Of a DNA stretch of 64,000 nucleotides, positions 6,650 to 56,944 are shown in pieces. Source of the DNA: Minisyncoccota bacterium. GTDB taxonomy: Bacteria; Patescibacteriota; Minisyncoccia; Phycocordibacterales; UBA5272. The stretch covers positions 373,325-437,324 of the forward strand of contig JBAZJW010000001.1 of NCBI GenBank assembly GCA_041651055.1. Direction: 5' to 3'. The translations under genes and the position numbers were made by a program. The notes under the pieces were generated by a model. It saw nothing but the letters and a program-made list of their open reading frames with translations, had not been told where the DNA came from and searched no databases. Positions within the stretch are counted from its first letter, which is position 1; every line of letters begins with the position of its first letter.

Positions 6650-6704
6650 AGATAGAAGCTCGAAGCTTAAGACTGGAAGCTGGAAGAGAAACACAACACA
6701 GAAA

Positions 6705-6738
6705 AAGCGGCGCCTACGGCGCCGCTCTTCCTTTTTAC
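6705..6738 (+). terminator. intrinsic terminator downstream of rpsA
   Basis: AGCGGCGCC-TACG-GCGCCGCT hairpin followed by CTTCCTTTTTAC. Flanked by inverted GGAAGCTGGAAG / CTTCCAGCTTCC arms. Confidence 0.6.
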
Positions 6739-6756
6739 TTCCAGCTTCCCTCTTCC

Positions 6757-6846
6757 AGCTGTTAGCTGTTAGCTGTTAGCTGTTAGCTGTTAGCTGTTAG
6801 CTGTTAGCTGTTAGCTGTTAGCTGTTAGCTGTTAGCTGTTAGCTGT
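6757..6846. repeat. tandem 9-mer repeat (AGCTGTTAG), ~10 copies
   Basis: Direct reading. It overlaps the last 5 codons and the stop codon of pth. Confidence 0.95.
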
Positions 6847-7376
6847 CCATTATATCTCTCCATCGCTTTCTGATATCCATCACTCGCGATAGTTTGCAGT
6901 GCACCTAATACACGAGAAGCAATTTCACGAAGTGATGTCTCCTCATCATCCCTAATCTTTCCCATGACATAATCCTGCACATCAGAACCTGATGGTGCGA
7001 GCACGACTTTACCATCGACATCATGTGGAGCAATACCGATACGAATACGAATAAAATCTTTTTTACCAAGAGACTCAATAATGTTTTTTACACCATTATG
7101 TCCACCATCTCCTCTATCAAATGAAATTCTAAATGTTCCAAACGCTAGATCTTTGTCATCATAAATAACAACAAGCTCGCGACCTTCGTGATAGCGTAAG
7201 TATTCACTCACCGCTTTGCCGCTTTCATTCATAAATGTTTCTGGTACGAATATTTCGTAGTCACTCATATGAGCAATGTCGCTTTCTATAGTCGCAAGCA
7301 TCACACGCGCAGCATTGTGACGTGTGCGCGCATACTTTTCACCAGGGTTGCCGAGCGGAACGAGTGTATAAATCAT
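6825..7376 (-). CDS. pth: peptidyl-tRNA hydrolase
   Basis: MIYTLVPLGNPGEKYARTRHNAARVMLA...HNGVKNII matches the Pth family N-terminal and catalytic-His motifs. Confidence 0.85.
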   Translation of the reverse strand: MIYTLVPLGNPGEKYARTRHNAARVMLATIESDIAHMSDYEIFVPETFMNESGKAVSEYLRYHEGRELVVIYDDKDLAFGTFRISFDRGDGGHNGVKNIIESLGKKDFIRIRIGIAPHDVDGKVVLAPSGSDVQDYVMGKIRDDEETSLREIASRVLGALQTIASDGYQKAMERYNGQLTANS

Positions 7377-7471
7377 ACTCGCAGTCTAGCATTAGCTAGA
7401 CTGCGAGTAAATTTTTAATTTTTAGTTCTTAATTTTTAATGAAACACGTAATGCAGGTATCGGTATTTACC

Positions 7472-7500
7472 TAAAAACTAAAAACTGGAAACTAAAAACT
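7472..7500 (+). promoter_or_regulatory. A-rich AAAACT box, copy 1
   Basis: TAAAAACTAAAAACTGGAAACTAAAAACT. It sits 32 nt before a TATACT -10 (7533-7538) and the lepB ATG (7548). Confidence 0.5.
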
Positions 7501-7523
7501 ATTCATGTGTTGCATAGCAACAC

Positions 7524-8276
7524 ATGAATCTATATACTGACCCCATAATGATTTCTTCTCTTGAACAAACACTGCTCGGTTCGCTCTCTGATGTTCTACA
7601 GAATCCTGTGTCGATGGTTATCTTTGGACTTCTTTCACTACTCATTATCGCTCTTATTTTTGCGAGCGTTTTTCCAACATGGAGACAAGGTCTCGTTGCC
7701 ATTAAAGTGCTCGAAAAAGAAGAAAAACCATCGTCACTCCTTCTTTGGATTATAGGAATAATTATTCTCGTAAAATGTATTCAAGGGTTTCTCATTCAAC
7801 CATTCATTGTCGATGGAGGATCCATGCTTCCAACGTATCATGATAAAGAGTTCCTCCTCGTCGATAAATTTTCATACATTTTTGGAGAACCAAAACGTGG
7901 AGAAGTTATGATTTTCAAACTCTACGAAAGCGACACCAATCCGTATCAAGGGAAACATCTCATCAAACGCGTCATTGGATTACCTGGTGAACGAATCGTT
8001 GTACAAAGTGGTGTGACCACCATTTACAACAAAGAGAACCCTAACGGATTTATTCTTGAAGAACCATACGTATCATACAAAGATTTACAAAAAGATACAG
8101 ATATTACCTTAGATGATCACCATTATTTTATGATGGGAGACAATCGCGCACAGAGTTATGACAGTAGATCGTGGGGAGCGCTCGATGCGAAAGATATCAA
8201 AGGTCAAGTGTTGTTCCGTGTGTATCCGTTCTCTACGGCTGCGTACGAGCCAGGAAGGTTTCTTTATACAAAATAG
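7524..8276 (+). CDS. lepB: signal peptidase I
   Basis: GGSMLPT...KRVIGLPGE...GDNR motifs of the S26 family. The functional start may be ATG 7548 (MISSLEQ...). Confidence 0.8.
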   Translation: MNLYTDPIMISSLEQTLLGSLSDVLQNPVSMVIFGLLSLLIIALIFASVFPTWRQGLVAIKVLEKEEKPSSLLLWIIGIIILVKCIQGFLIQPFIVDGGSMLPTYHDKEFLLVDKFSYIFGEPKRGEVMIFKLYESDTNPYQGKHLIKRVIGLPGERIVVQSGVTTIYNKENPNGFILEEPYVSYKDLQKDTDITLDDHHYFMMGDNRAQSYDSRSWGALDAKDIKGQVLFRVYPFSTAAYEPGRFLYTK

Positions 8277-12298: not shown

Positions 12299-12427
12299 GG
12301 CCCAGTTAGGGGTTAACCGTTAGGAGTTAGGGGTACACATAAAAGCCTTATTTTGTTTACTGTTTTCTTACTCCTAACCCCTAACCGCCAACCCCTAACG
12401 GGGTTGGCAACAACACAAATTTTTTCT

Positions 12428-14006: not shown

Positions 14007-14966
14007 ATGCCCACCACATCCACTCTCTCCTCTTCCCTCTCACCTCTTGCCTACGATTTAATAATCGTAGGAGGTGGTCCCGCTGGTACTGCTGCGGCCG
14101 TCTATGCTGCTCGTAAGCAATTACGCTCGCTTCTCATTGTAAAAGAATGGGGAGGTCAATCAACGGTCTCAGATGATATTCAAAACTGGATTGGCACACC
14201 ACACATTTCTGGTGCGAATCTCGCAGCATCATTCAAGTCTCATATCGATGAATACAGAGGTGATATTCTTTCTGTTGCTGAAGGTTCTGGTGTCACCGCT
14301 ATTACAGGCACAGACGGCGACTTCACCGTCACTCTAGAAAACGGAAACGAACACAAAGGAAAGACCGTGATCATTGCCACAGGATCATCTCGTAGGAAAT
14401 TAGACATACCTGGTGCAGATATTTTCGAAAACAAAGGCATCACCTATTGTGCTTCATGCGATGGGCCACTTTTTTCTGGCATGGATGTAGTTGTTGTTGG
14501 TGGAGGAAATGCAGGCTTTGAATCTGCAGCTCAACTTCTCGCTTACTGTAAATCCGTCACACTTCTTTCACGAAGTGAGCCTCGGGCAGACGCCATTACC
14601 GTTGCAAAATTAAAGCAGCGTGAAAACTTTACCCTCGTTACCAATGCCGTTCCCAAGAATGTGCAGGGTTCAGTCTTTGTAGAATCTATTACCTACACCA
14701 AGTCAGAAACAAACGAAGACGTCACACTCCCTGTAGCTGCTGTCTTTGTCGAAATAGGACAACTTCCAGCCACAGACTTCGCGAAAGCTATTGTGAATCG
14801 TGATGCGACGAATCACATCATCATCAATCCACGTACACAAGAAACCTCTACTGTTGGCATCTGGTCAGCCGGTGACTGTACGGACGTGCTCTATCATCAA
14901 AACAATATCGCAGCTGGAGATGCTGTGCGAGCCTTAGAAGATATCTACCTCCATATTCACGCCTAA
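14007..14966 (+). CDS. trxB: thioredoxin-disulfide reductase-like FAD/NAD(P)-dependent oxidoreductase
   Basis: YDLIIVGGGPAGTAAAVYAAR FAD-binding Rossmann fold, CASC redox-active disulfide, VVVVGGGNAGFESA NADPH site. The ORF track starts at TTG 13998. Confidence 0.7.
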   Translation: MPTTSTLSSSLSPLAYDLIIVGGGPAGTAAAVYAARKQLRSLLIVKEWGGQSTVSDDIQNWIGTPHISGANLAASFKSHIDEYRGDILSVAEGSGVTAITGTDGDFTVTLENGNEHKGKTVIIATGSSRRKLDIPGADIFENKGITYCASCDGPLFSGMDVVVVGGGNAGFESAAQLLAYCKSVTLLSRSEPRADAITVAKLKQRENFTLVTNAVPKNVQGSVFVESITYTKSETNEDVTLPVAAVFVEIGQLPATDFAKAIVNRDATNHIIINPRTQETSTVGIWSAGDCTDVLYHQNNIAAGDAVRALEDIYLHIHA

Positions 14967-15023
14967 GTCGTTAGTCGTTAGTCGTTAGTCGTTAGTCGTT
15001 AGTCGTTAGTCGTTAGTCGTTAG
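14967..15023. repeat. tandem 8-mer repeat (GTCGTTAG), ~7 copies
   Basis: Direct reading. It begins immediately after the trxB stop codon. Confidence 0.95.
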
Positions 15024-15100
15024 GTAAATTGTAATGCGGGATAATTTGCTTTGCAAATTATCCCGCATTACCTAACGAAGAACACCCTAACGTCCTAACT
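15021..15100 (+). repeat. 80-bp hairpin module, copy 1
   Basis: Perfect stem GTAATGCGGGATAATTTG-CTTTG-CAAATTATCCCGCATTAC, followed by CCTAACGAAGAAC-ACCCTAACGTCCTAACT. Confidence 0.9.
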
Positions 15101-15141: not shown

Positions 15142-16884
15142 ATGCAAAAATATCTCTCTCTTATTGTTCGTCTCTGGAAAATGCTTAAACCTTTCCACAA
15201 AGACTTCTACTTACAGCTCTTCTCAACAATTATTCAACAAGGAATAACCGTATACGTTATTTACCTGACAGCAAAAGTTCTCGACAATCTCATTCATAAA
15301 AATTTTGAGGTAGCTCTTACTTTAGTGGGTATTACCACTACAATTTCTCTTGCGAAAGTCATCATTGCTTACTTCACCGAAATACATGCCCAGAACAATC
15401 TAGACTTTGCAATACAACAACACCTTCAAGAATATTCATTTAAGAAAATATTCAAATTAAACATTTCTCAATACACAGAAGATCACTCAGCAGTTAAACA
15501 GCAAGTTATAGACCGCGGTGAAGCAGCGATAGACACTATCATCTCTACGCTCATACTAAACCTTCTCCCGACAATAACCCAAGTGCTCTTTGCTATTATT
15601 GCTATTTCATTTTACTCAAAAATAGTTGGTATATGGACCTTTACCTCGCTTCTTATTGTGGTTTTGTGGAGTAACTACTTTGCGAAATATCATAGACCAT
15701 TCATAAAACAAGATATTGAAAATGGTGACAGACAAAAGAGAGTGCGAACAGAATCATTCCAACATCTAAGCCTCATTCGAACCCTTGGTGCCGAAGACTT
15801 CTATCTTGAAAAGTACCTCAACAGTAGACAAAAGGTTATGGACTACAAAAAGTTTGTGTGGAACATTGCCATAAAACATGGCCACAGAAGGTATGGATTC
15901 TTCACGGCATCCAGATCCTTTAGCACCGTCATTATTATTTACTTGGCATACATGGGGACAATAACCGTCGGATCAATCTACGCTGTTTGGGCGTATATCA
16001 GCGAAGCCAATAGTCAGATATTTAGTATTATTCAAGCAATACGACAAATGCCGCTTCGCTTTAGTGAGCTCGAAAAGTACCTAGACATTGTCGACAAAGA
16101 AGCTCTCTTTGACGAGCACGGAAAGAAAACAAAACTTGTTGGTGATATTGTTTTAAACAAGCTCACCTTCAAGTATCCACAGGGAAATATCGAGCTCTTC
16201 AATAATCTTTCTCTCACCATCCCCTACGGTAAAAAAGTTGCTTTCGTAGGTTCATCTGGTTCTGGAAAGTCCACCATTGTTAAATTGCTTCTTCGTATAT
16301 ATACCTACGATGAAGGCTCTATCACTATCGGTGGAGTGGAACTAAAAAACATAGAGGGTAAATATCTTCGAGAGAGTATTGGGTATGTTGAGCAGCACGT
16401 AGATCTCTTCGATGAAACCATACGAGAAAATATTTTAGTCGGTATAAAAAATAAAGACAAAAAAAGTGCAGAGAGAAGGTTGGGTGAAGTTGCAGAACAA
16501 TCTCGCATTTCTGAATTCTACCATCGCCTCGGTAAAGAAAAGTTCGACACGTACATCGGTGAACGTGGTGTGAAATTATCAGGTGGCGAACGTCAGCGTA
16601 TCGGTATCGCACGCGCAATTATCAAGAATCCAGACATCCTCATCTTCGACGAAGCAACGGCATCACTGGACGCAGAGAATGAAGCAAAGGTAATGGAAGC
16701 TATCAACGACGTCTCTCATGGAAAAACATCCATCATTATTGCCCATAGACTCTCTACCGTACGAGATGCTGATAAAATCATCGTCATGGATAAAGGGCAC
16801 GTTGTTGGTGAAGGAACTCACGATGAGTTGATGCAATCGTGTGACATATACCAAAATCTCGTCGCACACCAGTTATCAAGTTAA
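15142..16884 (+). CDS. ABC transporter, fused permease/ATP-binding protein (exporter type)
   Basis: Six N-terminal TM helices, then Walker A GSSGSGKST, ABC signature LSGGERQRIGIARA and Walker B ILIFDEATASLD. Confidence 0.8.
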   Translation: MQKYLSLIVRLWKMLKPFHKDFYLQLFSTIIQQGITVYVIYLTAKVLDNLIHKNFEVALTLVGITTTISLAKVIIAYFTEIHAQNNLDFAIQQHLQEYSFKKIFKLNISQYTEDHSAVKQQVIDRGEAAIDTIISTLILNLLPTITQVLFAIIAISFYSKIVGIWTFTSLLIVVLWSNYFAKYHRPFIKQDIENGDRQKRVRTESFQHLSLIRTLGAEDFYLEKYLNSRQKVMDYKKFVWNIAIKHGHRRYGFFTASRSFSTVIIIYLAYMGTITVGSIYAVWAYISEANSQIFSIIQAIRQMPLRFSELEKYLDIVDKEALFDEHGKKTKLVGDIVLNKLTFKYPQGNIELFNNLSLTIPYGKKVAFVGSSGSGKSTIVKLLLRIYTYDEGSITIGGVELKNIEGKYLRESIGYVEQHVDLFDETIRENILVGIKNKDKKSAERRLGEVAEQSRISEFYHRLGKEKFDTYIGERGVKLSGGERQRIGIARAIIKNPDILIFDEATASLDAENEAKVMEAINDVSHGKTSIIIAHRLSTVRDADKIIVMDKGHVVGEGTHDELMQSCDIYQNLVAHQLSS

Positions 16885-16888
16885 ATGT

Positions 16889-16976
16889 TAGTCGTTAGGT
16901 AAACTGTAATGCGGGATAATTTGCTTTGCAAATTATCCCGCATTACCTAACGAAGAACGCCCTAACGTCCTAACTT
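16889..16976 (+). repeat. 80-bp hairpin module, copy 2
   Basis: Near-identical to 15021-15100 and in the same orientation, so the two copies flank the ABC gene as direct repeats. Confidence 0.9.
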
Positions 16977-17306: not shown

Positions 17307-17386
17307 AACGACCAGTCTATAAAGTTAAAAGCAAAAAGTCCATAAAGGGATAAGGGCGGCCACTTCGTGGCCGCCCGTGTTCTCTT

Positions 17387-17413
17387 AAAACTAAAAACTG
17401 GAAACTAAAAACT
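17387..17413 (+). promoter_or_regulatory. A-rich AAAACT box, copy 2
   Basis: AAAACTAAAAACTGGAAACTAAAAACT, 23 nt upstream of TGCTATACT (17437-17445), which lies 7 nt before ATG 17453. Confidence 0.5.
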
Positions 17414-17452
17414 ATTTCATAGACTTTCCACTCTGCTGCTATACTATCTGGT

Positions 17453-18770: not shown

Positions 18771-18798
18771 AAAAACTAAAAACTGGAAACTAAAAACT
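18771..18798 (+). promoter_or_regulatory. A-rich AAAACT box, copy 3
   Basis: Same 27-mer. It lies 39 nt upstream of TGATATACT (18838-18846), which is 6 nt before ATG 18853. Confidence 0.5.
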
Positions 18799-18852
18799 TT
18801 CATGGACGTTCTCCACTTTCACACCATATACCACATGTGATATACTTTTCAT

Positions 18853-20367
18853 ATGCCTCCAAATGACCAAGAAAAGATAGGACTTTTCATCAAGAAACTC
18901 CGTGAAGAAAAAGGAATGACCCAAGGTGAGCTTGCCAAAGCTCTCAAGACTTCCCAGCCCGCAGTGGCCCGTATTGAGTCTGGAAACCAAAATTTGACCA
19001 TAGAGCACATCGAAAAGATAAGCGAGGTACTTGGGCAACAAATCGTAACATTAAACGATACTATTGATTTTAAGGTTCATGGTGGCCGAAAATTATCCGG
19101 CTCTATCACCACCAACACCTCCAAAAATGGCGCAGTTAACATGATGGTCGCTGCCCTTGTAAACTCGGGCACTACCGTACTCCGCGACATTCCCCATATC
19201 GAAGAAGTGTACCGCTACAAAGAGCTTCTCGAGAGTTTGGGTGTGAAGATACGCTGGACACACGATGACACAGCACTTTCTATTACACCACCAAAGAAAC
19301 TTCTGTTTTCAAAAATGAACAAAGACGTCGCTACACGCATCCGGTCATTTACCTTTGCTGGTGCATTCATTCACTTCAGTGATCAGTTCACCCTCCCTCA
19401 TTCCGGTGGATGTAAAATGGGAGAACGCACCGTCGCGTCACATAAGTACGCGCTCGACTATCTCGGCGTTTCAATAGACACCAAAGAAAATCATTACGCT
19501 ATTTCCTACAAAAAATTACATACTGGAACTATTCCTTTATACGAATCATCAGATACAGGTGCCATCACTGCACTCCTCGCGGCATCTCGTATCGAAGGTA
19601 CGACGACAATTATGTTTGCTCCGCCGAACTACCAAGTGCAAGATGTGTGTTTCTTACTTGAACATTTTGGTGTAAAGATCGAAGGTATCGGAAGTACAAC
19701 GCTTATCGTACATGGCAAGAAAGACATTAATGTCGATGTCGAACATTACAATAGTGAAGACCCTATCGAAAGTATGTTTTTCTTGGCTGCCGGAATTGTT
19801 ACAGGATCGAAACTCACCATCACACGTTGTCCGATTGAATTCCTTACTCTTGAAATAGAAAAATTAAAGCGCATGGGATTGAAATATTCTCTTTCAAAGA
19901 AGTACCTCGCGAAGAATGAAAGAACATCTCTCGTTGATATTACTATTTCACCTTCGAAGTTAACCGCACCGACAGACAAAATCCACGCGCAACCTTTCCC
20001 TGGAATCAACAATGATAATCTCCCCTTCTTCGTACCAATTGCATGTTTTGCAGAAGGTCAAACTCTCATCCATGATTGGACATGGGAAAATCGCGCCATC
20101 TATTTTACAGAATTGAATCGCCTCGGCGCTGATATCAAATTACTCGACCCACACCGAGCCCTTGTGACGAGTGTGAAGAAATTACGCGGTGCACAAATCG
20201 TCTCCCCTCCTGCGCTTCGTCCGACCGCTATTATTTTGATCGCTATGCTTGCCGCTGAAGGCACATCATTACTTCGCAATGTGTACTCCATCAAGCGCGG
20301 CTACGCAGACATTGCTGAACGATTAAATTCTATCGGCGCGAAGATTGAAGTGTTAAGAGGAGTGTAA
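18853..20367 (+). CDS. murA: UDP-N-acetylglucosamine 1-carboxyvinyltransferase with an N-terminal XRE-type HTH domain (fusion)
   Basis: Residues 1-60: LRKLREEKGMTQGELAKALKTSQPAVARIESGNQNLTIEHIEKISEVLG (HTH_XRE). From residue 75: KVHGGRKLSGSITTNTSKNGAVNMMVAALV...HSGGCKMGERTV (MurA/EPSP-synthase fold with the active-site Cys). Confidence 0.75.
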   Translation: MPPNDQEKIGLFIKKLREEKGMTQGELAKALKTSQPAVARIESGNQNLTIEHIEKISEVLGQQIVTLNDTIDFKVHGGRKLSGSITTNTSKNGAVNMMVAALVNSGTTVLRDIPHIEEVYRYKELLESLGVKIRWTHDDTALSITPPKKLLFSKMNKDVATRIRSFTFAGAFIHFSDQFTLPHSGGCKMGERTVASHKYALDYLGVSIDTKENHYAISYKKLHTGTIPLYESSDTGAITALLAASRIEGTTTIMFAPPNYQVQDVCFLLEHFGVKIEGIGSTTLIVHGKKDINVDVEHYNSEDPIESMFFLAAGIVTGSKLTITRCPIEFLTLEIEKLKRMGLKYSLSKKYLAKNERTSLVDITISPSKLTAPTDKIHAQPFPGINNDNLPFFVPIACFAEGQTLIHDWTWENRAIYFTELNRLGADIKLLDPHRALVTSVKKLRGAQIVSPPALRPTAIILIAMLAAEGTSLLRNVYSIKRGYADIAERLNSIGAKIEVLRGV

Positions 20368-20446
20368 GAGATAGCTTAGAGTCAACAGTTTATAGTTGAT
20401 AGAAAATACAATTACAAGGTGAGGTCTTGTATTAAAAAAGACAGAA

Positions 20447-21544: not shown

Positions 21545-21565
21545 AGGAACAGTATAGAAGAAATA

Positions 21566-21594
21566 CTTTTTAGTTTCCAGTTTTTAGTTTTCAG
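21566..21594 (-). promoter_or_regulatory. A-rich AAAACT box, copy 4 (minus orientation)
   Basis: Reverse complement of the 27-mer. On the minus strand it is followed after 10 nt by TATACT, then 5 nt, then the NUDIX ATG. A partial extra copy lies at 21631-21647. Confidence 0.5.
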
Positions 21595-21636
21595 AAGATA
21601 CAAATACAAGGCGAGGCCTTGTATTAAAAATAGTTT

Positions 21637-22374
21637 TTAGTTTTTAGAATCAAGCAGAATGGTAGACGAAGGATTGAATCCTTTAACGACGAGCCAGATA
21701 CCGAGTGAAAATTCAAAGAGTGCTACGAGTAATGCAAATAATCCTGTGATTGGTGCATGTTGTCCGACGACGCCGAATAATATCGCAAGATACCCCACGA
21801 TAAGCACAGGTCCTCCGATGATTCCAATCAAAGAAAGGCCGCGAGGCACGAGGCGTGATTGATACAAAAGGACACCCAACAAAATGTCATTTATTGCTGG
21901 TAAGAAACTTTGACCAAGAAGGAAGATGCGATCATATAATATGGCGAGTGTGTGACCAGTAACGAGAGCCGCTGCTCCCGCACCCTCTTGTCGCAAAGCA
22001 ACAATCGACAAAAGAAAAGCTACACCGACAAACATAGTGCTTGCTTCTAGAATTCTGGATGCAACGAGACCTAATGCGAGTGTTTCATTCTGCTTTTTGA
22101 GCAATGGGAATAATACAATAGCCGTACCGATACCAGCGAGAGCCACGATGATTTCCGAAATACCTCCGATGATCATTGCTGTATCGGGGCCAACGCCGAG
22201 AATATAGCCAGCACTTTTTACTTGTCCATAGAGTGCAAGTGTTGGTATCGAAACAAAAGTGAGTAGATATAGCAAGCCTGCCGTTAATGATATTTTTCTT
22301 GAGGGTGATAAAACTTTCTTATATACCCCTTCCGTTCCAACAGTCTTCTCATTTCCAATTATTTTTTGTTCCAT
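21637..22374 (-). CDS. multi-pass membrane protein, possibly DUF4386-like
   Basis: 245 aa with about 7 hydrophobic helices. Family assignment is tentative. Confidence 0.4.
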   Translation of the reverse strand: MEQKIIGNEKTVGTEGVYKKVLSPSRKISLTAGLLYLLTFVSIPTLALYGQVKSAGYILGVGPDTAMIIGGISEIIVALAGIGTAIVLFPLLKKQNETLALGLVASRILEASTMFVGVAFLLSIVALRQEGAGAAALVTGHTLAILYDRIFLLGQSFLPAINDILLGVLLYQSRLVPRGLSLIGIIGGPVLIVGYLAILFGVVGQHAPITGLFALLVALFEFSLGIWLVVKGFNPSSTILLDSKN

Positions 22375-23118: not shown

Positions 23119-23202
23119 GCATCTTCGCGCAATTACACGTCTCGTGTCCTTCGTCTGGTGACTACGGACATCTTCGGTGCTCTTCGCACCTCGAGCTAAC
23201 CG
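23119..23202. repeat. 84-bp exact repeat, copy 1 (partner at 53875-53958)
   Basis: CATCTTCGCGCAATTACACGTCTCGTGTCCTTCGTCTGGTGACTACGGACATCTTCGGTGCTCTTCGCACCTCGAGCTAACCGC is identical at both loci. It ends in a tRNA 5'-end fragment (GCGGTTAGCTCGAG on the minus strand). Confidence 0.95.
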
Positions 23203-23341
23203 CCCCTCCATCATCTCTAACTGTCCTAATACACTAAACTATACCATACAAAAGGAGAGGTCCAAAAGTTGAAAGAAACGACTTTTTGTGGTAGTATATT
23301 TTTTACTTGGCCACCATCTTTTCTGATATGGACAAGAAGAC

Positions 23342-26011: not shown

Positions 26012-26135
26012 TTTGAAATAAAGTATACCAGTTCCAATCCTCTTTGTTTTTCTAAACGGTATACGAGAGTAGGCCGTATTCCTTTATAGACTTTCAACTT
26101 TATGAACTTTTCACTCCTCTTGGTATACTCTCTCT

Positions 26136-26390
26136 ATGATTGAACCAGAATTACAAGCACACCTAGAAAGCATCGAAAAAGAAATTATCGCCTTTCGAAA
26201 TGAATCCAACGGACTCGCTAGCACATTTACGCGTGGCGTTGTTCATGGTGCAGGATACGTCATCGGCGTTGTCCTCATCATTATCGTCATCGGATGGATT
26301 TTGAATATTGTCGGCGTTATTCCTGCCCTTAATACACAAGTATCAGAATTCCGTGCAGCACTCGATCGTATTGGTGGCCCAGTGAAATAG
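26136..26390 (+). CDS. small single-TM protein flanked by direct repeats
   Basis: 84 aa; hydrophobic core GAGYVIGVVLIIIVIGWILNIVGVIPAL. GACTTTATRGACTTT-type direct repeats lie at 26083-26125 and 26418-26456. Confidence 0.35.
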   Translation: MIEPELQAHLESIEKEIIAFRNESNGLASTFTRGVVHGAGYVIGVVLIIIVIGWILNIVGVIPALNTQVSEFRAALDRIGGPVK

Positions 26391-27962: not shown

Positions 27963-27988
27963 AATATAGATTCTGGTATACTGCTCTT

Positions 27989-29170
27989 ATGATTTTACTC
28001 GCCATTGAAACAAGTTGCGATGAGACCGCTGTGTCCATTGTAAAACGAGTACGAGGTAATCGTCTCCGTTTTGAAGTACTGTCACACAAAGTACTATCTC
28101 AAACAGATCTCCACGCAGAATACGGAGGAGTTTTTCCCATGCTCGCAAAACGTGAACATGCGAAAGCGCTCACCCAGCTCATAGCGGAATGTCTCGAAGA
28201 GGCAGACCTTCTTGTTGAACGTGCGAATACCTATCACATTCCAAACACCGAACGTAAAAAATTAGAAACACTTTTTGAACGTGAACCGGATATGCTTGCA
28301 GCTATGAAGATTCTTTTTGAAGGAATACAAAAACCAGCAATCGACGCGATAGCGGTCACCCAAGGACCAGGACTTGAGCCAGCGCTATGGGTGGGCATCA
28401 ATGGTGCTCTTGCACTCCATATGGTGTGGGATGTCCCATTGTATCCAATAAATCACATGGAAGGCCATATTATGGCCAGCACGTTATCTCACAAGGACGG
28501 TGTGTACGAAATGCCAGAAATCGCCTATCCGGCCTGTGCGCTTCTCATTTCTGGAGGACATACAGAGCTCGTACGTATTGCTAAACTTCGTTCATATAAA
28601 GTGATAGGAAAAACACGTGATGATGCTGTTGGTGAAGCGTTTGATAAAGCAGCTCGCATGCTTGGACTACCTTACCCTGGAGGCCCAGAAATATCTCGCC
28701 TTGCCGAACATGCTCGTAATGAAAGTCTTGTCGTTGATGAAGACCTTCGACTACCTAGGCCCATGCTACACAGTGGCGACCTAGCCTTTTCATTTAGTGG
28801 ACTGAAAACTGCGGTACTTGTGCGTGTAAATAAGAGGCAACCCCTTAATGATGCGACGAAGAAAATGCTCGCACTTGAATTTGAAAATGCAGTAACCGAT
28901 GTGCTTGTTACAAAAGTAAAACAAGCTATGTATGAATTGCGTGCCGAGACACTTATTGTCGGTGGTGGGGTGAGTGCGAATACACACATACGAGAAGCAC
29001 TGCTGTCGCTTTCTGAAAGCGAAAATTTTACACTCTTTGTTCCAGAAAAATCCCTATCGACAGACAACGGCCTTATGATCGCAGCAACAGGGTTACTTCA
29101 CGTCGCCGTAGATGTCGAATCAAAAGTAAAGCTGAAAGCGAACGGAGCGTGGTCAATAGAGAACAGTTAG
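27989..29170 (+). CDS. tsaD: tRNA N6-adenosine threonylcarbamoyltransferase TsaD (Kae1/YgjD)
   Basis: ILLAIETSCDETAVSIV N-terminus, HMEGHIMAS metal site, GGGVSAN. About 40 aa of insertions relative to the typical length. Confidence 0.85.
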   Translation: MILLAIETSCDETAVSIVKRVRGNRLRFEVLSHKVLSQTDLHAEYGGVFPMLAKREHAKALTQLIAECLEEADLLVERANTYHIPNTERKKLETLFEREPDMLAAMKILFEGIQKPAIDAIAVTQGPGLEPALWVGINGALALHMVWDVPLYPINHMEGHIMASTLSHKDGVYEMPEIAYPACALLISGGHTELVRIAKLRSYKVIGKTRDDAVGEAFDKAARMLGLPYPGGPEISRLAEHARNESLVVDEDLRLPRPMLHSGDLAFSFSGLKTAVLVRVNKRQPLNDATKKMLALEFENAVTDVLVTKVKQAMYELRAETLIVGGGVSANTHIREALLSLSESENFTLFVPEKSLSTDNGLMIAATGLLHVAVDVESKVKLKANGAWSIENS

Positions 29171-29174
29171 GGGA

Positions 29175-29204
29175 AGTTTTTAGTTTCCAGTTTTTAGTTT
29201 TTAG
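29175..29204 (-). promoter_or_regulatory. A-rich AAAACT box, copy 5 (minus orientation, no downstream -10 found)
   Basis: Reverse complement of the 27-mer, directly after the tsaD stop and facing back into tsaD. No TATACT follows on the minus strand. Confidence 0.4.
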
Positions 29205-29222
29205 AAAAATACACAGACTAAT

Positions 29223-29270
29223 AACAAGGGGTACCCTTGTAGTCCAAATTTACAAGGGTACCCCTTGTTA
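29223..29270. terminator. bidirectional hairpin between convergent genes
   Basis: AACAAGGGGTACCCTTGTA-N9-TACAAGGGTACCCCTTGTT, a 19-bp perfect inverted repeat. Confidence 0.5.
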
Positions 29271-29742
29271 TATGATACAGAGACGAAAGAAAAGCGATAT
29301 CTTACGATATCGCTTTTCTTCTGCCTCGCACCCAATTGTGGTGAGCGTGGCATGCTCCAAAGATAAATGCCTTATGTGAGCGCGGTCGCCCACCGCAATT
29401 GCTTGCGAGGGGGTTCCACAGGATCCAGTTTACAATTTTTAGTTTCAAGTTACAAGTAAGCTAGTCCATAAAGTCCTTAAGGTTTGTAAAGTCTACAAAG
29501 TAATACAAATACTTTAAGCGCCATTTCAGGTCTAAAATTGTACCGAATACGAGGCGGTGAATATTTTTTCGACTAAGACGTACAAGAGTACGTTGCATGG
29601 AGAAAAAAATATTCACCAACAAAGTAGGCGGTATGATTTTAGACCTGAAACGTAAATGGCCATCTTTCGATGACCATTTGCGCAGGCATTCATTTATCTT
29701 GTAAGCACACCGTTTACGCGGCTCACGTATATGAGTGTACTA

Positions 29743-31962
29743 CTACTTTTTACCTGGAGCAAGTAGTTGCTTGATATACGCATCTACCTGAGCACTGTAT
29801 TCTGGATTCGTACGCTTCACTTCTGCAAGAAGCTCGAGAGCAAGAGGTATCTGTCCTGTTGTTACGACGGCGTTTAAGATGTCGCCATCAAACGGTACAG
29901 TAAGTCCACTTTCTTTAATGTGCGCACGAGCATCTTTGAATGAACCCGCATATACAGCTGTTAGGACATACCACTTTTGTGCATCAGGATAGATTGGCTG
30001 AAGATCATACACTTCACGTGCGAGTGCGTACGCTTCCGTATACTTACGTTGCATCAAGTACGAACGAATAAGATCAAAAGATATGAGCTGTTTTTTCGGA
30101 GCAATTACGTGCGCCATTCCGATGACCTGTTCTCCAGAAATCGCATCTCCAATACCGTTGTAAAACATTCCATAAATAGTAAGCATGCGCACATCTTCTT
30201 TGTGTGCAGAAAGTGATGCTGTCACATCATCACGAACGGCTTTGATGAAATTATTAATCGCCTGAGTACCTGCTTGCTTGTCAGCAGCTGGTGTTTCTGC
30301 TGGAATATTCACCTGAGAAAGACGCACACCCATTTGAAGAAACTGTTCGCGTGATTCTTCGCTACCAAGTGTATGGAGAGCGATGGCACTTGTGAACGCC
30401 TCCTGCTGTATTTTTATCGCATCCGCAAACGGCATCTTTTGCACAAGCTGACCAACGCTCATCCCTTGAATGAGAAGTGTATTCACAAGGTATGGACGAT
30501 AGTTAACGAAGTATAGTGTCACGAGGAGAACGACACCAACAATTGGCATCCAGATATAATTCATCTGTTCTTCTGTTACAATCCCTTTACTGTGATGCGC
30601 CACCTGTCCACCTTTTGTTCTCATCACGATGTATGCAAGTAATGCGAAGAAAAGAATGTAACTTGTTAAGTTATCAAACACGAAAATGTTGTGAACAAAG
30701 TATCCAACAAGCGCACCTGTAAGGATTGCTTTTTCACGAGTAGGCATATCGTGTTTCTTACTTCTCCACATAAGCGAAAGTGCTACGACGTACAGCGACA
30801 AGTATGAGAGTAGGCCAAGGATTCCAGCTGCAACAAGCCAGTCGAAGAACACGTCATGAGAACGGTCATACCATGGCTCGAGATTCCACATCTTTTCAGG
30901 CATAAACTTTCGAGCATAAATATAACTAAAATTATCTTGTCCGTATCCGAGTATTGGTCGTTCAAGAAACGCTTCATAACTAATCGTCCAAATAGAAAGA
31001 CGACTCATGCTTGTAAGTTCTGTTGGTGAAATACTTGCGAGACGAGCAAGTGTCGGTGTTGATTGTACAAATGAACTATTCTTAAATGTTACGAGTGATC
31101 CCACGAGAATAACAACAGCAACAAGCACTCCGGCAAAAACTTTTCGTGCATGCCCTTTTTCTCGCCATGCAATAAGCCCAATCGTTACCATTACACCTGC
31201 GACGAGTCCGATCATCGTCCCTCTCGTACCAGAGTAAAAGAGTGCAATCAAGTTAAGTGCGATAAGTACCGGATATCCCCATGCACGTTTTGCATTCGGT
31301 GTCTGTGACCAGAGTAGTGCTGCAATAAATGCGAACATGAGACAATAAATAGCAAAGTATGCGGAGTTTCCAATCGTTGCATCGAGTCGGTTTTCACTTT
31401 GGTGAATCGGGAATCGTGCAGAGAACCATGCTCCAAGTTCTGGGAGTTTTTGTGCAAAGATGTATCCTTTCGCTCCGAACATTTGTCCGTAACCATAAAT
31501 AAGCACGAGAAGGTTTGAGGCAAAGAATACCTTAAACATTTTCTGCCAGTCCTTAAGTGTTGGGAGCATTGCCGTAAGTACAAAGAAATATGCAAAGAAG
31601 TGAATGTGGCCAACGAATCCTTCCATGCGTTCATAATTACTCCACATACTTCTTTCTCGATCGACACCGAAAATATCCGCAAGCAAAAGTACAACCATGA
31701 AAATCGCATACGCAATAGTCAGTGGTGACTTCTTGAGATTCGGACGGTAGGACACATCACGCAGTGCGAGCAGTGCCCATCCAGCAAATGCAATTTCTAC
31801 AAGAACTCTAAAAACGAGATTCTTGCCAGAAATAAATGGGAAGTAAAGTCCCGATGTTCCCCAGTTGAGAAAATCAAAAGTTCCTCCGTCGGCTACATAG
31901 AGCGCCAAAAATGGAATAAGTGCAAGCGAAACCCAAACTATTTTTTTAATAATACTTTGCAT
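29743..31962 (-). CDS. O-antigen-ligase-like polytopic membrane protein with a C-terminal TPR/soluble domain
   Basis: 739 aa with more than 12 TM helices, including a Wzy_C-like segment (YSGTRGTMIGLVAGVMV), then a ~250-aa hydrophilic tail with TPR-like repeats. Confidence 0.5.
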   Translation of the reverse strand: MQSIIKKIVWVSLALIPFLALYVADGGTFDFLNWGTSGLYFPFISGKNLVFRVLVEIAFAGWALLALRDVSYRPNLKKSPLTIAYAIFMVVLLLADIFGVDRERSMWSNYERMEGFVGHIHFFAYFFVLTAMLPTLKDWQKMFKVFFASNLLVLIYGYGQMFGAKGYIFAQKLPELGAWFSARFPIHQSENRLDATIGNSAYFAIYCLMFAFIAALLWSQTPNAKRAWGYPVLIALNLIALFYSGTRGTMIGLVAGVMVTIGLIAWREKGHARKVFAGVLVAVVILVGSLVTFKNSSFVQSTPTLARLASISPTELTSMSRLSIWTISYEAFLERPILGYGQDNFSYIYARKFMPEKMWNLEPWYDRSHDVFFDWLVAAGILGLLSYLSLYVVALSLMWRSKKHDMPTREKAILTGALVGYFVHNIFVFDNLTSYILFFALLAYIVMRTKGGQVAHHSKGIVTEEQMNYIWMPIVGVVLLVTLYFVNYRPYLVNTLLIQGMSVGQLVQKMPFADAIKIQQEAFTSAIALHTLGSEESREQFLQMGVRLSQVNIPAETPAADKQAGTQAINNFIKAVRDDVTASLSAHKEDVRMLTIYGMFYNGIGDAISGEQVIGMAHVIAPKKQLISFDLIRSYLMQRKYTEAYALAREVYDLQPIYPDAQKWYVLTAVYAGSFKDARAHIKESGLTVPFDGDILNAVVTTGQIPLALELLAEVKRTNPEYSAQVDAYIKQLLAPGKK

Positions 31963-45601: not shown

Positions 45602-46948
45602 CTATCTCCCAAACAACCCCTTAAACCATGCGACGATTCGGGTGTCTTTTTGTGTGTGGACAACTCGTGTGACAGATGTAGTGCTGGCGACGATAGTGGA
45701 TGTCGCAGCAGATGCGTGGGGCACTGTTTTCACTATAACCTTTTGATATACACGAGCAGGTGCTTGTATGAGAATGCTTTTTATCGGCATGGTCGTAGCA
45801 ATCGTCGTAGTCGCAGCACCCAACACCAACCCTTCATCTTTAATGTATTTCGTCACTTCTTCTTGATTCGGAAAAAGAATTTGAACAACCGTGCCAGACG
45901 AAATAGTACTACTTGCGAATCCCATCGCTACACCAGAAAAATGTGTTACACCACCGGCAGCGAGTAATGTGTTTTTTGGAAAAGGAAAAGCAGAACCATT
46001 TATCAAAAGTTTCCATTGAGAAAAATCTAAGTCGTACGGGTTCGGATTCGTAATATCTACATACGTGCCATATTTGCCAGAAGCAATAGCACTGATGGCA
46101 ATATCTGGAGGCACGACACGCACCGTCATACGACCTGTACCAGCCACGTATCCATTCGTACCTTCCACTTGCGCGACGTACCTGCCGGCATACGCATACC
46201 GATACTTTGTCGACGTGCCGACGGCTTGTCCCCCATCACCAAAGGCCCATGTGCATGTGAGTCCATCAATAGTTTTGCCAGCGCGCGTCATACCATACGT
46301 ACTGAATTCTGTTTCAGCACCAGCGACGACGGTTTTTTCAAACGGCATATACAAAATAATATCAGGCGATGGTGGAGACATTTGTGCGACGGTCACTTGA
46401 TGCTCTGTCGTTGTGGTCGCTGTCGTATCTGTCGGAGTCGTTGTGTCGACGACAGCTGGCGCACTATTTTCTGATCCCGGTGTCGGCGTCGTTTGAATAA
46501 AGCTTCCGTTCACACGTGATAAAGTCATACCCTCTTTTGCTGCCGTATAGGACGAAAGAATGTCTAAGGAGACACCGTTTAGTTTTATTTCAATCGATGT
46601 AACACCAGTGTTCACTAAACTTATAGAACTTTTAAAAAGTGAACCATTGTATAGTGGGTAGTCCTGCAAAAATTTCGTCACCCCACTTACGGTCGAAGCA
46701 ATAATCGCATACTCTCCCGCATTAAGCGTCGTACCCCCTGAAAGGGGTGTAGTCACGATTGCTGCACCTCCTTTTATGGAAATAGTAAGCGCAGAAATAT
46801 CCACCGGTACTGTCGTATCGTTATACAATTCCACCCACTCTCTCCCTCCATCATCTCCTGTCGGATTAGACATAATCTCACTTATCAAAAGCGCATGTGT
46901 ACTCATGGTGCCGCTCATAAAAAGTGAAAGGATGAGGAGTTTTTTCAT
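45602..46948 (-). CDS. secreted lamin-tail-domain (LTD) protein
   Basis: Signal peptide MKKLLILSLFMSGTMSTHA. Two LTD-like segments (LISEIMSNPTGDDGGREWVELYN...ISALTI and YVDITNPNPYDLDFSQWKLL) and a T-rich linker. Confidence 0.6.
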   Translation of the reverse strand: MKKLLILSLFMSGTMSTHALLISEIMSNPTGDDGGREWVELYNDTTVPVDISALTISIKGGAAIVTTPLSGGTTLNAGEYAIIASTVSGVTKFLQDYPLYNGSLFKSSISLVNTGVTSIEIKLNGVSLDILSSYTAAKEGMTLSRVNGSFIQTTPTPGSENSAPAVVDTTTPTDTTATTTTEHQVTVAQMSPPSPDIILYMPFEKTVVAGAETEFSTYGMTRAGKTIDGLTCTWAFGDGGQAVGTSTKYRYAYAGRYVAQVEGTNGYVAGTGRMTVRVVPPDIAISAIASGKYGTYVDITNPNPYDLDFSQWKLLINGSAFPFPKNTLLAAGGVTHFSGVAMGFASSTISSGTVVQILFPNQEEVTKYIKDEGLVLGAATTTIATTMPIKSILIQAPARVYQKVIVKTVPHASAATSTIVASTTSVTRVVHTQKDTRIVAWFKGLFGR

Positions 46949-46952
46949 AGTG

Positions 46953-48788
46953 TTATGACTCCTCTTCTATAAGTTTACGCAAAACTTCTTCGGCTATTTC
47001 TTTTTGCACACGCTTATTTTCTTCTACCACCGTTTCTTTCTTTGTATCATGCGTGCGATCTGTATTTTCTGTTATCTGTCGACTGTCAGCTGATGACTGT
47101 CTATTCTCTTCCATTGCTTTTGCTAGAGCTTCTTTGAGTGATAGCGCCGGCTTTTCATCAAAGGTTTTTGGATATTCTATGCGAGAACGTTCTTCAGGTA
47201 CACCTTTTGTTGGTTGGGTACGCACTTGCTCTTGTGGCACACGCCTCTCTTCCGTATGCTGACGAGGTCTATCTTCTTGATGGCCACCTCTTTGGCTATT
47301 TGCGTGTGAAGGAGTGTCTCTTCGTGGATCCTGACTTCTTTCTCCTTGTACGCTCCCTTTTCCATTATCTAATGGCCTACTTTCTGGTTGTCTTCGTGGT
47401 GCAGGTGCATCGTGTCGGATTTCGCGCACTTTCATATCTCGCTCATCTCGTGGTTTTCCTTCGTCTCTTTTTGTTTCAGCTTTTTCTATTGGTTTGTAGA
47501 AGGCATTAATTTCTTCTTCAACTTCAGCGATTGGTTTACCATAGCTTTTACGCGAATAGGCAATAACCTCATCACTAAATGAGCGTGCAGGCTTTTGTAT
47601 TGGACCAAGAGTGTGTGCTGAGAACGGCTTCGAGCCTTGCCCATCAATCATCAAGCGAAGATAAATTTGAAACGCGGAGAGGTTCACAATGTCGTCCAAA
47701 ATGAAATATGGCGCAAATTCTTTTTCAAAAATTTCTGCATCAGTCGCACCAACACGAAATACAATCATGGTACCTACGTTTCCAAAGACGGCCGCCTTTA
47801 CCTCGTCTGTCATTTGTTCGACATACTGATGTGCAACGGTGAGAGCAAGATTGTACTTACGCGCTTCCGAAAGAATGTTTGCAAAAGATTCATTGGCAAA
47901 GTTTTGGAATTCATCTACGTACACATAAAATGGTGGTAACTTTTCTAGTTCGTATGGACCGACATCGGCACGAGACATGGCTGCAAGGTATATTTTTGTA
48001 ATCAAGAGTGAACCGATCAAATTCGCATTTCCTTCTCCAACTTTTCCTTTAGAAAGGTTCACGATAATAATCTTTTTTGTATCCATCGCATCACGCAAAT
48101 CAATAGATGTTTTTTGTTGTCCGACAATATTTCTAATCAGTGGATTGCCGACGAATTGTCCAACTTTGTTCTGGATGGCAGGTGCAGCTTCTGCTGCGAA
48201 CTTCTCTGTATAGGACGCATATTCTTTTTCCCAAAAATCTTTCACCGTCGGATCTGTCACATTCGAAACAATAAACTTACGATACTCTTTATCTACCAAC
48301 ATTCTATTCACACCGAGCAGACTTTGATTATCATTTTCAAGAAGAGCGAGGATAATGTTCGTCAAAATATATTCCATACGCGCACTCCATGCATCAACCC
48401 AAATCTTTTTGAAAGCCGCCATGATACCGTTTGCCACCAAGTGACGCTTTTCTTTTTCTACTTTTTCAAGAACGTTCAATCCTATAGGACTATCGACATC
48501 AAACGGAGCAAAGTAGATAACATCTTTTACACGAGATTCTGGTATGTGGTCGAGCAACTTTTCAGCAAGTGATCCGTGTGGGTCAATAACACAAACACCT
48601 TCACCGTTGTTGATATCTTGAATAATGAGATTCTCGAGAAGGGTTGATTTTCCCATACCTGTCTTTCCAATGACATAAGTGTGGCGAGTGCGATCGTTTT
48701 CTTTGATGCCGAAAGTAAGCTGTTTATTTCTGTAATCAACCTTACCGATGTAGGTTACTTTTTCTTTATGCGGCTCTTGATCTGACAT
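46953..48788 (-). CDS. VirD4/TraG/TraD-like P-loop ATPase (TraM-recognition/TrwB family) with a ~170-aa disordered R/E/Q-rich C-tail
   Basis: Walker A VIGKTGMGKST, DEFQNF Walker B region, HQYVEQ motif. Tail from residue ~440 is low complexity. Confidence 0.55.
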   Translation of the reverse strand: MSDQEPHKEKVTYIGKVDYRNKQLTFGIKENDRTRHTYVIGKTGMGKSTLLENLIIQDINNGEGVCVIDPHGSLAEKLLDHIPESRVKDVIYFAPFDVDSPIGLNVLEKVEKEKRHLVANGIMAAFKKIWVDAWSARMEYILTNIILALLENDNQSLLGVNRMLVDKEYRKFIVSNVTDPTVKDFWEKEYASYTEKFAAEAAPAIQNKVGQFVGNPLIRNIVGQQKTSIDLRDAMDTKKIIIVNLSKGKVGEGNANLIGSLLITKIYLAAMSRADVGPYELEKLPPFYVYVDEFQNFANESFANILSEARKYNLALTVAHQYVEQMTDEVKAAVFGNVGTMIVFRVGATDAEIFEKEFAPYFILDDIVNLSAFQIYLRLMIDGQGSKPFSAHTLGPIQKPARSFSDEVIAYSRKSYGKPIAEVEEEINAFYKPIEKAETKRDEGKPRDERDMKVREIRHDAPAPRRQPESRPLDNGKGSVQGERSQDPRRDTPSHANSQRGGHQEDRPRQHTEERRVPQEQVRTQPTKGVPEERSRIEYPKTFDEKPALSLKEALAKAMEENRQSSADSRQITENTDRTHDTKKETVVEENKRVQKEIAEEVLRKLIEEES

Positions 48789-50334: not shown

Positions 50335-50364
50335 AGTTTTTAGTTTCCAGTTTTTAGTTTTCAG
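50335..50364 (-). promoter_or_regulatory. A-rich AAAACT box, copy 6 (minus orientation)
   Basis: Reverse complement of the 27-mer, 5 nt upstream of TATACT, which lies 10 nt before ATG 50311. Confidence 0.5.
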
Positions 50365-50559
50365 AGAATGCGAAAAGCGAAATCGGCAGATTTCGCTTTT
50401 AGTTTCCGCATTTCCTAACGAAGAACGACCAACGATTAACGAGTAACGAGAGCCTTCTATAATAGTCAGGAATATTCAATAACTTAATATCTAATATTCA
50501 AATCAAATGCATTGCATTTCTTTGAATATTGGTTATTAAAACATTGAATATTGTTGTTA

Positions 50560-53680: not shown

Positions 53681-53874
53681 TTTTTTATATTACTACCTAC
53701 CGACTTTGTGCACGTTTTAACAATCTACCACCTGTGTCAAAAGTTTGCTAACTTTTGACATCTTCGCGGCCGAGCCATCTCGAGCTAACCGCGCATATTT
53801 TATTTAACTACCCACACACTTCATACACGTTTGAACAATCTACCAGCTTGCGTCTTGTTCTTGCTGAACCAAGA

Positions 53875-53958
53875 CATCTTCGCGCAATTACACGTCTCGT
53901 GTCCTTCGTCTGGTGACTACGGACATCTTCGGTGCTCTTCGCACCTCGAGCTAACCGC
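53875..53958. repeat. 84-bp exact repeat, copy 2 (partner at 23119-23202)
   Basis: Identical sequence, in the same relative position upstream of a minus-strand tRNA. Confidence 0.95.
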
Positions 53959-54799: not shown

Positions 54800-56633
<1,834 letters not shown>

Positions 56634-56944
56634 ATTTAATAGAGTGTGACAAAAGAAAAAACAAAAAAATGCACAATGTTTATGTAATGTATTGTGAAGC
56701 GTCACTTCAGTTCTTTTTTATGTTTAGAATTTCTAAAACAAAAAAGGAGCTGAACAGCTTCTATTAAAATTTCAAATGACTACAATTACTGCTCACTGCT
56801 TATGAGTAAGAAGTAGGACTATTCTATACTGTGCAGCACGTAAAGTCAAGCTTCTAATCAACAACACAAGCCATAACAGACAAACTTTTACAATATCCAC
56901 AGATATGCTTGCCATTTAAGGCTATTTTGATTAAACTCGTAGCA

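Follow-up and report, generated by a model that had tools for sequence, protein, structure and literature searches.

A near-identical 27-nt heptad box between the genes of a Candidatus Paceibacterota genome and its relation to predicted leaderless promoters

An A-rich box of 27 nt recurs in the intergenic DNA of a Candidatus Paceibacterota MAG, a reduced CPR genome with a GC content of 41%. An earlier note on a 64-kb stretch of this genome (the whole of the DNA analysed here, hereafter the window) had counted six near-exact copies, most of them upstream of genes, and proposed that they resemble UP elements or the repeated binding site of a regulator. We asked whether the box is indeed a conserved regulatory site, or whether it is repeated DNA of another kind that has come to lie next to promoters.

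The box and the period-7 repeats of the window

The 27-mer AAAACTAAAAACTGGAAACTAAAAACT has six matches in the window, five exact and one with a single mismatch, and no matches in 100 dinucleotide-preserving shuffles. All six copies are intergenic (Table 1), which bears out the count of the earlier note, whose coordinates were off by 0-2 nt. The box is made of four heptads, [A]AAAACT, AAAAACT, GGAAACT and AAAAACT, and the interrupting GG unit is common to all copies. A half-box of two heptads, AAACTAAAAACT, occurs exactly at 21632-21643(-), where it includes the DUF4386 stop codon, TAA, and accounts for a partial copy previously placed at 21631, and with one mismatch at 29434-29445(-). A variant, ACT(AAAAACT)3, stands 9 nt ahead of the TGgTATACT of a lipoprotein-like gene just beyond the window. 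When the six copies are aligned, about 10 nt of T-rich, semi-conserved sequence (GTaTtTTTCT) precede the box, and similarity drops sharply on its 3' side. The flanks define two sub-families: the copies at 18772 and 29175 have GTGTAT(AT)TTTTCT upstream in common, and those at 21565 and 50335 are alike in having YTCTG upstream and TA downstream. Of three Logan contigs from this strain, two break off at or within a box, as is expected of a repeat.

Table 1. Box copies, adjoining hairpins and heptad arrays in the window
Feature	Position	Strand	Context
Box copy 1, exact	7474..7500	+	divergent pth/lepB gap
Box copy 2, exact	17387..17413	+	divergent TfoX_N/Nramp gap
Box copy 3, exact	18772..18798	+	tandem gap from Nramp to HTH-EPSP synthase (MurA-like), sense to downstream gene
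Box copy 4, one mismatch	21565..21591	-	tandem gap, sense to downstream NUDIX147
Box copy 5, exact	29175..29201	-	convergent gap, 4 nt past tsaD stop, antisense to tsaD, no promoter downstream
Box copy 6, exact	50335..50361	-	tandem gap, sense to downstream 73-aa membrane gene
Degenerate seventh box copy with hairpin (family D10)	20366..20438	-	78% to 21558-21630; convergent murA-like/Ser_hydrolase gap
GC-rich hairpin GGGCGGCCAC-TTC-GTGGCCGCCC, then T-rich linker	17354..17376	+	directly upstream of copy 2; z -4.7
Terminator-like hairpin of DUF4386, then TGTATCTTCT, then copy 4	21603..21625	-	z -2.8
Long perfect hairpin (~21 bp) with T-rich linker	29222..29270	-	upstream of copy 5; z -6.4
(TCGTTxx)5 heptad array with nested hairpin	50372..50450	-	upstream of copy 6; z -5.3
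Degenerate mirror array AATTTTT x4.4 (+ strand; A-rich in pth sense)	7410..7440	-	abuts TTTACT-17-TAGACT of pth
(AGCTGTT)12.9, sister family	6757..6846		encodes last 7 residues and stop codon of Pth
(AGTCGTT)8.3, sister family	14966..15023		TRF

At gathering thresholds, no Rfam family matches the box in the whole window, and a permissive Rfam search around copy 5 (29100-29800) yielded sub-threshold matches only. A full-text literature search for the box sequence returned unrelated oligonucleotides only. A replication-oriented motif, which the order of the copies along the window (+++ then ---) might indicate, was rejected, as GC skew is uniformly negative over the window.

The box is one of many repeats of its period. 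Tandem-repeat detection yielded 26 TRF rows of period 7 in the window, compared to 1.15 in Markov shuffles, while periods 8-12 are near expectation; every box copy is itself recovered by TRF at period 7, with 3.6-4.4 copies. Nearly all period-7 arrays are intergenic or overlap stop codons. Besides the two sister families in Table 1, the window holds GAAGCTG, CCTAACC (paired with an inverted AGTTAGG array), CCTAACGAAGAACGA, TAGGTTT and AATTTTT. Several of the families occur as inverted arrays on either side of a terminator-like hairpin, with GT-rich units to its left and AC-rich units to its right (6650-6824, 12299-12400 and 14967-15100). Families D4, D6, D10 and D13 share modules in mosaic fashion, and several good terminators in the window are free of heptads. 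In the ENA assembly of this strain (L008 16662-16691), (AGTCGTT)n has exactly four units (28 nt) fewer, owing either to a slippage polymorphism or to a collapse in assembly; the interrupted box is identical in both assemblies. At pth, (AGCTGTT)n has overwritten the stop codon (6825-6846) and added GQLTANS relative to the syntenic relatives described below; the protein ends in AMERYNGQLTANS here, compared to AMERYN or AMERFN in the relatives.

Other repeats and insertions were observed in the same window. A 96-nt module of heptads, a perfect 19-bp hairpin and inverted heptads occurs at 15005-15100 and 16880-16975 with 95% identity, flanking an ABC transporter gene, and its end, CGCATT(A/T)CCTAACGAAGAAC, recurs at 50406-50430, so the intergenic modules are mosaic. 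An 84-nt exact repeat lies in non-coding DNA beside tRNA genes (23120-23203 and 53875-53958), with partly related copies (80%) at 53683-53733 and 53798-53848. The 16S rRNA gene, 54893-56640(-), measures 1748 nt compared to a 1533-nt model, which implies an insertion of about 215 nt; insertions in 16S rRNA genes are common in CPR bacteria. A link between the heptads and a heptad-flanked 23S_rRNA_IVP/bAvd gene was considered and rejected, with one weak homologue found among the 3721 ORFs of heptad-bearing loci.

Hairpins are frequent neighbors of the box. A strong hairpin with a T-rich linker is found upstream of four copies (z = -2.8 to -6.4), whereas the other two, at 7474 and 18772, have no convincing hairpin (z -0.8 and +0.1, respectively). 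The box is unpaired in the four folds with a strong hairpin, and the sequences of these hairpins differ from copy to copy. The half-box at 21632-21643(-) is upstream of the DUF4386 hairpin, heptads, hairpin and heptads follow one another at the locus of copy 6, and copy 1 forms a divergent pair with the mirror array on the pth side of its gap. A long stem between the box and complementary heptads was rejected as a general feature, since it holds for the copy at 7474 only. The pth/lepB gap also contains two perfect palindromes: ATTCATGTGTTGC-ATA-GCAACACATGAAT, at 7501-7529 between the box and the lepB -10, whose core TGTTGCATAACA is retained in one relative (L136), and TACTCGCAGTCTAGC-ATTA-GCTAGACTGCGAGTA, at 7376-7409, which abuts the pth ATG. 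These palindromes may be operators.

Predicted leaderless promoters and the position of the box

Among the 86 ORFs of at least 100 aa in the window, 15 have TA[TG]A[AC]T ending 6-11 nt before the start codon, where about 0.5 would be expected, indicating that TATACT is a real promoter signal. Across ~79 kb of this genome, 17 of 24 promoters carry the TGn extension (TGnTATACT), and the -35 region of these 24 is weak, its first T alone reaching 67%. The extended -10, TGnTATACT or TATAAT, is found 6-10 nt before the ATG, as at 27966-27991, 26113-26138 and 46948-46975(-). As the -10 lies so near the ATG, TGn is frequent and the -35 is weak, we infer leaderless transcription, and most genes of this genome would have leaderless mRNAs that start from extended -10 promoters.

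The earlier note had described five copies as oriented with the downstream gene and upstream of a TATACT-type -10, at 5-39 nt. The arrangement holds in all five cases, in front of a hexamer that the ORF-wide count supports, and the distances need correction to 8-42 nt: from the box end to TATACT, they are 32 nt for lepB, 26 for Nramp, 42 for the murA-like gene, and 8 each for NUDIX147 and the 73-aa gene. These spacings show no helical phasing, and the box has no fixed position relative to the core promoter of the kind an operator would have. The copy at 29175, for which no -10 and an antisense course into tsaD had been reported, is indeed of this kind, as is the degenerate copy at 20380, which faces the 3' end of the convergent murA-like gene; neither has a promoter. 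With respect to orientation, which the earlier note had named as a check, all four informative copies in ~79 kb of this genome, namely those between tandem genes, are in the sense direction.

At the level of individual promoters, copy 1 ends 9 nt before a -35-like TTGCAT (7510-7515) of lepB, whose TATACT is at 7533-7538. Copy 2 ends 2 nt before TTCATA-18-TGcTATACT (hexamer at 17440-17445) of Nramp, with its ATG at 17453, and copy 3 ends 19 nt before TTCACA-17-TGaTATACT (18841-18846) of the murA-like gene, with its ATG at 18853. The other two promoters, those of NUDIX147 and the 73-aa gene, both lack TGn, and at each the GG unit of the box gives rise to the sequence TGGAAA exactly where a -35 would be placed: in copy 4, TGGAAA (21579-21574) is 17 bp from TATACT (21556-21551; ATG at 21544), and in copy 6, TGGAAA (50349-50344) is 17 bp from TATACT (50326-50321; ATG at 50311). 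An A5 tract lies just upstream of TGGAAA in both. Thus, Nramp, NUDIX147 and the 73-aa gene have the box next to or over their -35 position, and at lepB and the murA-like gene it is set back upstream of that position by 9 and 19 nt, respectively. In all five cases TATACT and a further 6-9 nt separate the box from the ATG, which puts the box upstream of the inferred transcription start. Extended -10 promoters leave the -35 element largely dispensable, so an array over the -35 region may simply be tolerated there.

Readings of GGAAAC as part of a sigma-54, sigma-28 or ECF-type promoter were rejected, because no -10 or -12 partner is present at a constant distance. The EPSP-synthase-family (MurA-like) protein encoded downstream of copy 3, at 18853-20367(+), has 504 aa and an N-terminal XRE-type HTH, a fusion that is kept in three of three relatives.

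Absence from syntenic relatives and similar arrays in unrelated genomes

Conservation of the box in related genomes had been suggested as a check, and three syntenic genomes were available for comparison, with Nramp proteins 79-85% identical (loci L133, L134/L135 and L136/L137). They have in common with the window the gene order pth-lepB-hisS...ftsZ-trxB-Nramp-murA-like...tsaD-Wzy_C, and in all three, lepB, Nramp and the murA-like gene retain their -10 and leaderless ATG. Yet the box is absent: neither it nor a pair of AAAAACT units occurs in L133, L134 or L136, period-7 arrays number 0-1 there, and the box is missing from the orthologous promoters of lepB, Nramp and the murA-like gene in each of them. 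The orthologous spacers are shorter in the relatives in four of five pairs (for example, 77-78 nt between Nramp and the murA-like gene, compared to 137 nt in the window), and the window is longer by about 110 nt, made up of box, linker and hairpin, between tsaD and a conserved terminator. Given the absence of the box from the relatives and these extra nucleotides, the box is a lineage-specific addition and not an ancestral promoter element or operator. It is also not needed for promoter function, because the relatives, with an unchanged -10, run these genes without it. The relatives do conserve a promoter-like site, TTGAAA-CT(T/A)AAAA...-TACACT with a 16-17 nt spacer, that resembles the 3' half of the box, so box-like sequence is compatible with the promoters of this clade.

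This promoter-like site (TTGAAA, a 16-17 nt spacer and TACACT) is internal to a non-coding region, 29283-29742(-), that extends from Wzy_C to the tsaD terminator and merits separate mention. The region spans ~440 nt in the window and ~250-400 nt in the three relatives, with its 5' and 3' parts conserved and its middle variable, and has a long-range closing helix of ~30 bp, a small number of compensatory changes and a terminator. No Rfam family was found for it, and it is a candidate structured RNA or small-RNA gene.

Sequences like the box are not confined to this lineage. The exact 27-mer occurs once each in seven MAGs of unrelated phyla with a GC content of 53-61%. A relaxed pattern, AAACTAAAAACTNNAAACTAAAAACT, was found in at least 119 metagenome contigs (GC 19-66%), with all kinds of interrupting dinucleotides, and in 34 viral contigs, including giant-virus MAGs; in all, more than 150 unrelated contigs carry AAAAACT-type arrays. 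However, composition-matched control heptads are no rarer in viral contigs (AAAAATC 47 and AAAAAGT 48, compared to 34 for AAAAACT), and other period-7 arrays are enriched in the foreign contigs as well, with 245 rows compared to 108 for period 8. The interrupting dinucleotides form genome-specific dialects, with TG/TA, AG, CA, CG or GG before AAACT dispersed at several sites.

The foreign arrays were classified by gap at 126 loci, using a G1-G2 coding filter calibrated on the window: 32 are tandem sense, 31 tandem antisense, 17 convergent and 9 divergent. Arrays in the sense direction lie against start codons, and those in antisense lie against stop codons, starting within ~10 nt of the latter. 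Many foreign contigs have an A-rich array whose end is 0-12 nt from a following start codon, at the Shine-Dalgarno position. A conserved cross-phylum element, as the seven MAGs might indicate, was rejected, since any dinucleotide interrupts the arrays, control heptads are equally frequent and there are many other period-7 arrays. The relaxed matches, the control heptads and the strand balance show instead that the cross-phylum matches are convergence among heptameric simple-sequence repeats. One metagenome contig with a GC content of 50% comes from another heptad-rich genome: within L113 5520-10385 it has seven AAAAACT-type arrays of up to 16 units in the TG/TA dialect, and GTGATTA arrays in the same 5 kb. 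Five of these seven arrays are antisense to the flanking genes and within ~35 nt of a stop codon.

Identity, origin and possible action of the box

Heptameric intergenic repeats have been described in several bacteria, including GGGAATC in Xanthomonas and GGGGA(C/T)T in Nostoc (Rehm et al. 2015, PMC4692102), the heptanucleotide LSSRs (Mrazek et al. 2007, as summarised in a passage of PMC4679880), and TAACTGA direct repeats in marine Beggiatoaceae, cyanobacteria and Bacteroidetes (MacGregor 2015, PMC4679880). The box shares with the Xanthomonas and Nostoc heptamers a 7-nt unit, about four units per array, a strong intergenic bias, many dispersed arrays, sporadic occurrence by lineage, a location near ORF ends and some inverted-repeat pairs. 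The Xanthomonas GGGAATC arrays divide into tandem sense, tandem antisense, convergent and divergent gaps at 30/35/16/8 % (PMC4692102), which is nearly the same as the 32/31/17/9 counted for the foreign AAAAACT-type arrays. The box differs in having an A-rich unit, and therefore cannot form a G-quadruplex, in its reduced CPR host, and in that one imperfect four-unit version is present in near-identical form, five of six copies being sense and just upstream of leaderless promoters. Like TAACTGA, it is a heptamer direct repeat of the 2-6-unit kind, oriented with genes, upstream of functionally unrelated ones and of patchy phylogeny; TAACTGA, however, is located in the 5' UTR, a few nt from the start codon, whereas here the -10 hexamer lies between the box and the leaderless ATG, making an RNA-level role unlikely. 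The STRR heptanucleotide repeats of heterocystous cyanobacteria, which to our knowledge have no reported link to promoters, resemble the situation in the window in that several heptanucleotide families are tandemly amplified in the non-coding DNA of one genome, and differ from it in sequence and phylum. Three such tandemly repetitive heptanucleotides are attributed to Calothrix PCC 7601 in a passage of PMC4692102. None of the LSSR, Xanthomonas, TAACTGA and STRR repeats has an established function. With its head-to-tail 7-nt units, the period-7 excess, an intergenic bias near ORF ends and a sporadic, lineage-specific occurrence, the box is very probably a member of this class of intergenic heptameric simple-sequence repeats, specific to its lineage and present in near-identical copies.

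Two further kinds of element invite comparison. UP elements of sigma-70 promoters, as at rrnB P1, are A/T tracts at about -40 to -60 that are bound by the alpha-CTD. The box resembles them in the A5 tracts directly upstream of the -35 position at three of five promoters and in its gene-strand polarity, but its end varies from about -21 to -55, its register is 7 bp rather than two subsites of ~10 bp, and it is not conserved at orthologous promoters. REP/BIME sequences of enterobacteria, Correia elements of Neisseria and putative mobile promoters are dispersed mosaic intergenic repeats, and like the box they are short near-identical sequences beside terminator hairpins that sometimes donate promoter hexamers. 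Unlike REP/BIME and Correia elements, the box is non-palindromic and has neighboring hairpins of differing sequence. It is a direct repeat, in whose six-copy alignment neither terminal inverted repeats nor target duplications, as found in MITE or REP sequences, are visible, and no transposase or RAYT was seen.

How, then, did the copies arise, and do they act? The shared GG interruption and the flank sub-families indicate that the copies derive from one cassette, and the absence of transposon features makes recombination or template switching the probable route. Heptad repeats have expanded in this Paceibacterota lineage and not in the three sampled syntenic relatives, and one cassette, rather than independent slippage, would have filled several terminator-to-promoter gaps, its copying from one heptad tract to another being due to recombination, gene conversion or template switching. 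Any action of the box would be exerted as DNA, in the upstream part of leaderless promoters of the extended -10 type: the GG unit may supply the -35-like TGGAAA at the two promoters that lack TGn, and the A5 tracts of the box are placed where the alpha-CTD of RNA polymerase could contact them as it does UP elements. Such a promoter effect, modest and -35- or UP-like, is plausible from the sequence, although its chances of being real fall somewhat short of even. For the whole of this reading, a copied heptad cassette acting if at all as upstream promoter DNA, which is the best explanation we have, we see about equal chances of its being right or wrong. Accordingly, of the earlier proposal of an UP element or regulator site, the -35/UP-like positions at Nramp, NUDIX147 and the 73-aa gene stand, while the spacing of 8-42 nt and two promoterless copies do not agree with it; nor does a conserved site of this kind agree with relatives that lack the box, downstream genes of no shared function, many heptad families and a balanced strand distribution in foreign contigs. 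The box is at most a recently added promoter accessory, and not a conserved regulatory site.

Several other explanations were weighed against this copied-cassette reading. That 27 nt are identical in five copies and one base off in the sixth, which decay and slippage would hardly maintain, is difficult to reconcile with neutral simple-sequence DNA, a by-product of heptamer-biased slippage and local copying that has no effect on expression and persists where it is harmless, between a terminator and an extended -10 promoter. The same is true of the exact 17 bp between TGGAAA and TATACT in both promoters without TGn, of the sense orientation of all four tandem-gap copies, and of three arrays that end 8-9 nt from the -10. 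Neutrality nevertheless accommodates a good deal: promoters conserved in relatives without the box, many unrelated heptad families in the same kinds of gap, the length polymorphism of one array, (AGTCGTT)n, the overwriting of stop codons by arrays (as where Pth gained GQLTANS), foreign arrays without orientation bias, control heptads as common as AAAAACT in viral contigs, and published heptameric repeats to which no function is assigned (PMC4692102, PMC4679880). It is the main rival, which we regard as unlikely, though worth serious consideration. It is improbable that hairpin, T-rich linker and heptads form a terminator or insulator module that jointly stops read-through transcription or translation. 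CTAA/TTAG in a 7-nt register does place stops in every frame of either strand, a strong hairpin and T-rich tract precede four of six copies, the copies at 29175 and 20380 lie where convergent genes end, inverted arrays of other families surround hairpins, and foreign antisense arrays begin within ~10 nt of stop codons; but the copies at 7474 and 18772 lack a convincing hairpin, a box behind the T-tract goes untranscribed if termination works, and several good terminators of the window, like those of the relatives, operate without heptads.

An operator for a dedicated regulator, with lepB, Nramp, the murA-like gene, the NUDIX gene and the small membrane gene as its regulon, is very improbable, and a conserved operator is not supported. 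The near-perfect conservation over 27 nt, the location upstream of five promoters and the XRE-type HTH fused to the EPSP synthase (MurA-like) downstream of copy 3 would suit one, whereas the site is missing at the orthologous promoters of relatives that retain the HTH fusion, it lies at varying distances from the core promoter, two copies lack a promoter altogether, a 7-bp direct-repeat register is unsuited to helix-turn-helix dimers, and the downstream genes, which have no common function, carry a box embedded in a general heptad expansion. A role of the box in DNA uptake or other self-recognition, which would make its CPR host naturally competent and would leave the identity of the copies to molecular drive, is in our view extremely improbable; biased uptake and recombination would then have spread the box into tolerated intergenic sites. 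DUS/USS occur at about 1 per kb, in both orientations and also inside genes, and their pairs are located in terminators of Neisseria and Haemophilus; the box, at ~1 per 10 kb and in intergenic DNA only, falls well outside that density. A TfoX_N gene does adjoin copy 2, and natural competence has been demonstrated in Saccharibacteria, according to a passage of PMC10187176. Least credible of all is an RNA-level element, either a 5'-UTR translation enhancer or an S1/Csp binding site, as proposed for the TAACTGA of Beggiatoaceae. Many foreign A-rich arrays end 0-12 nt before a start codon, a placement like that reported for TAACTGA by MacGregor 2015 (PMC4679880), but in this genome TATACT intervenes between box and ATG and the box is upstream of the inferred transcription start.

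What is new here is the CPR host, a near-identical dispersed cassette, and a -35-like contribution at two leaderless promoters. The exact 27-nt matches across unrelated phyla call for caution, as such matches can arise by convergence in simple-sequence space. The architecture of TGnTATACT, 6-10 nt and ATG is useful for the annotation of CPR genomes. A reduced CPR genome of the Paceibacterota can carry a recent, lineage-specific heptanucleotide burst, and if the box acts as a -35, it would be a small natural case of repeat DNA spreading promoter parts.
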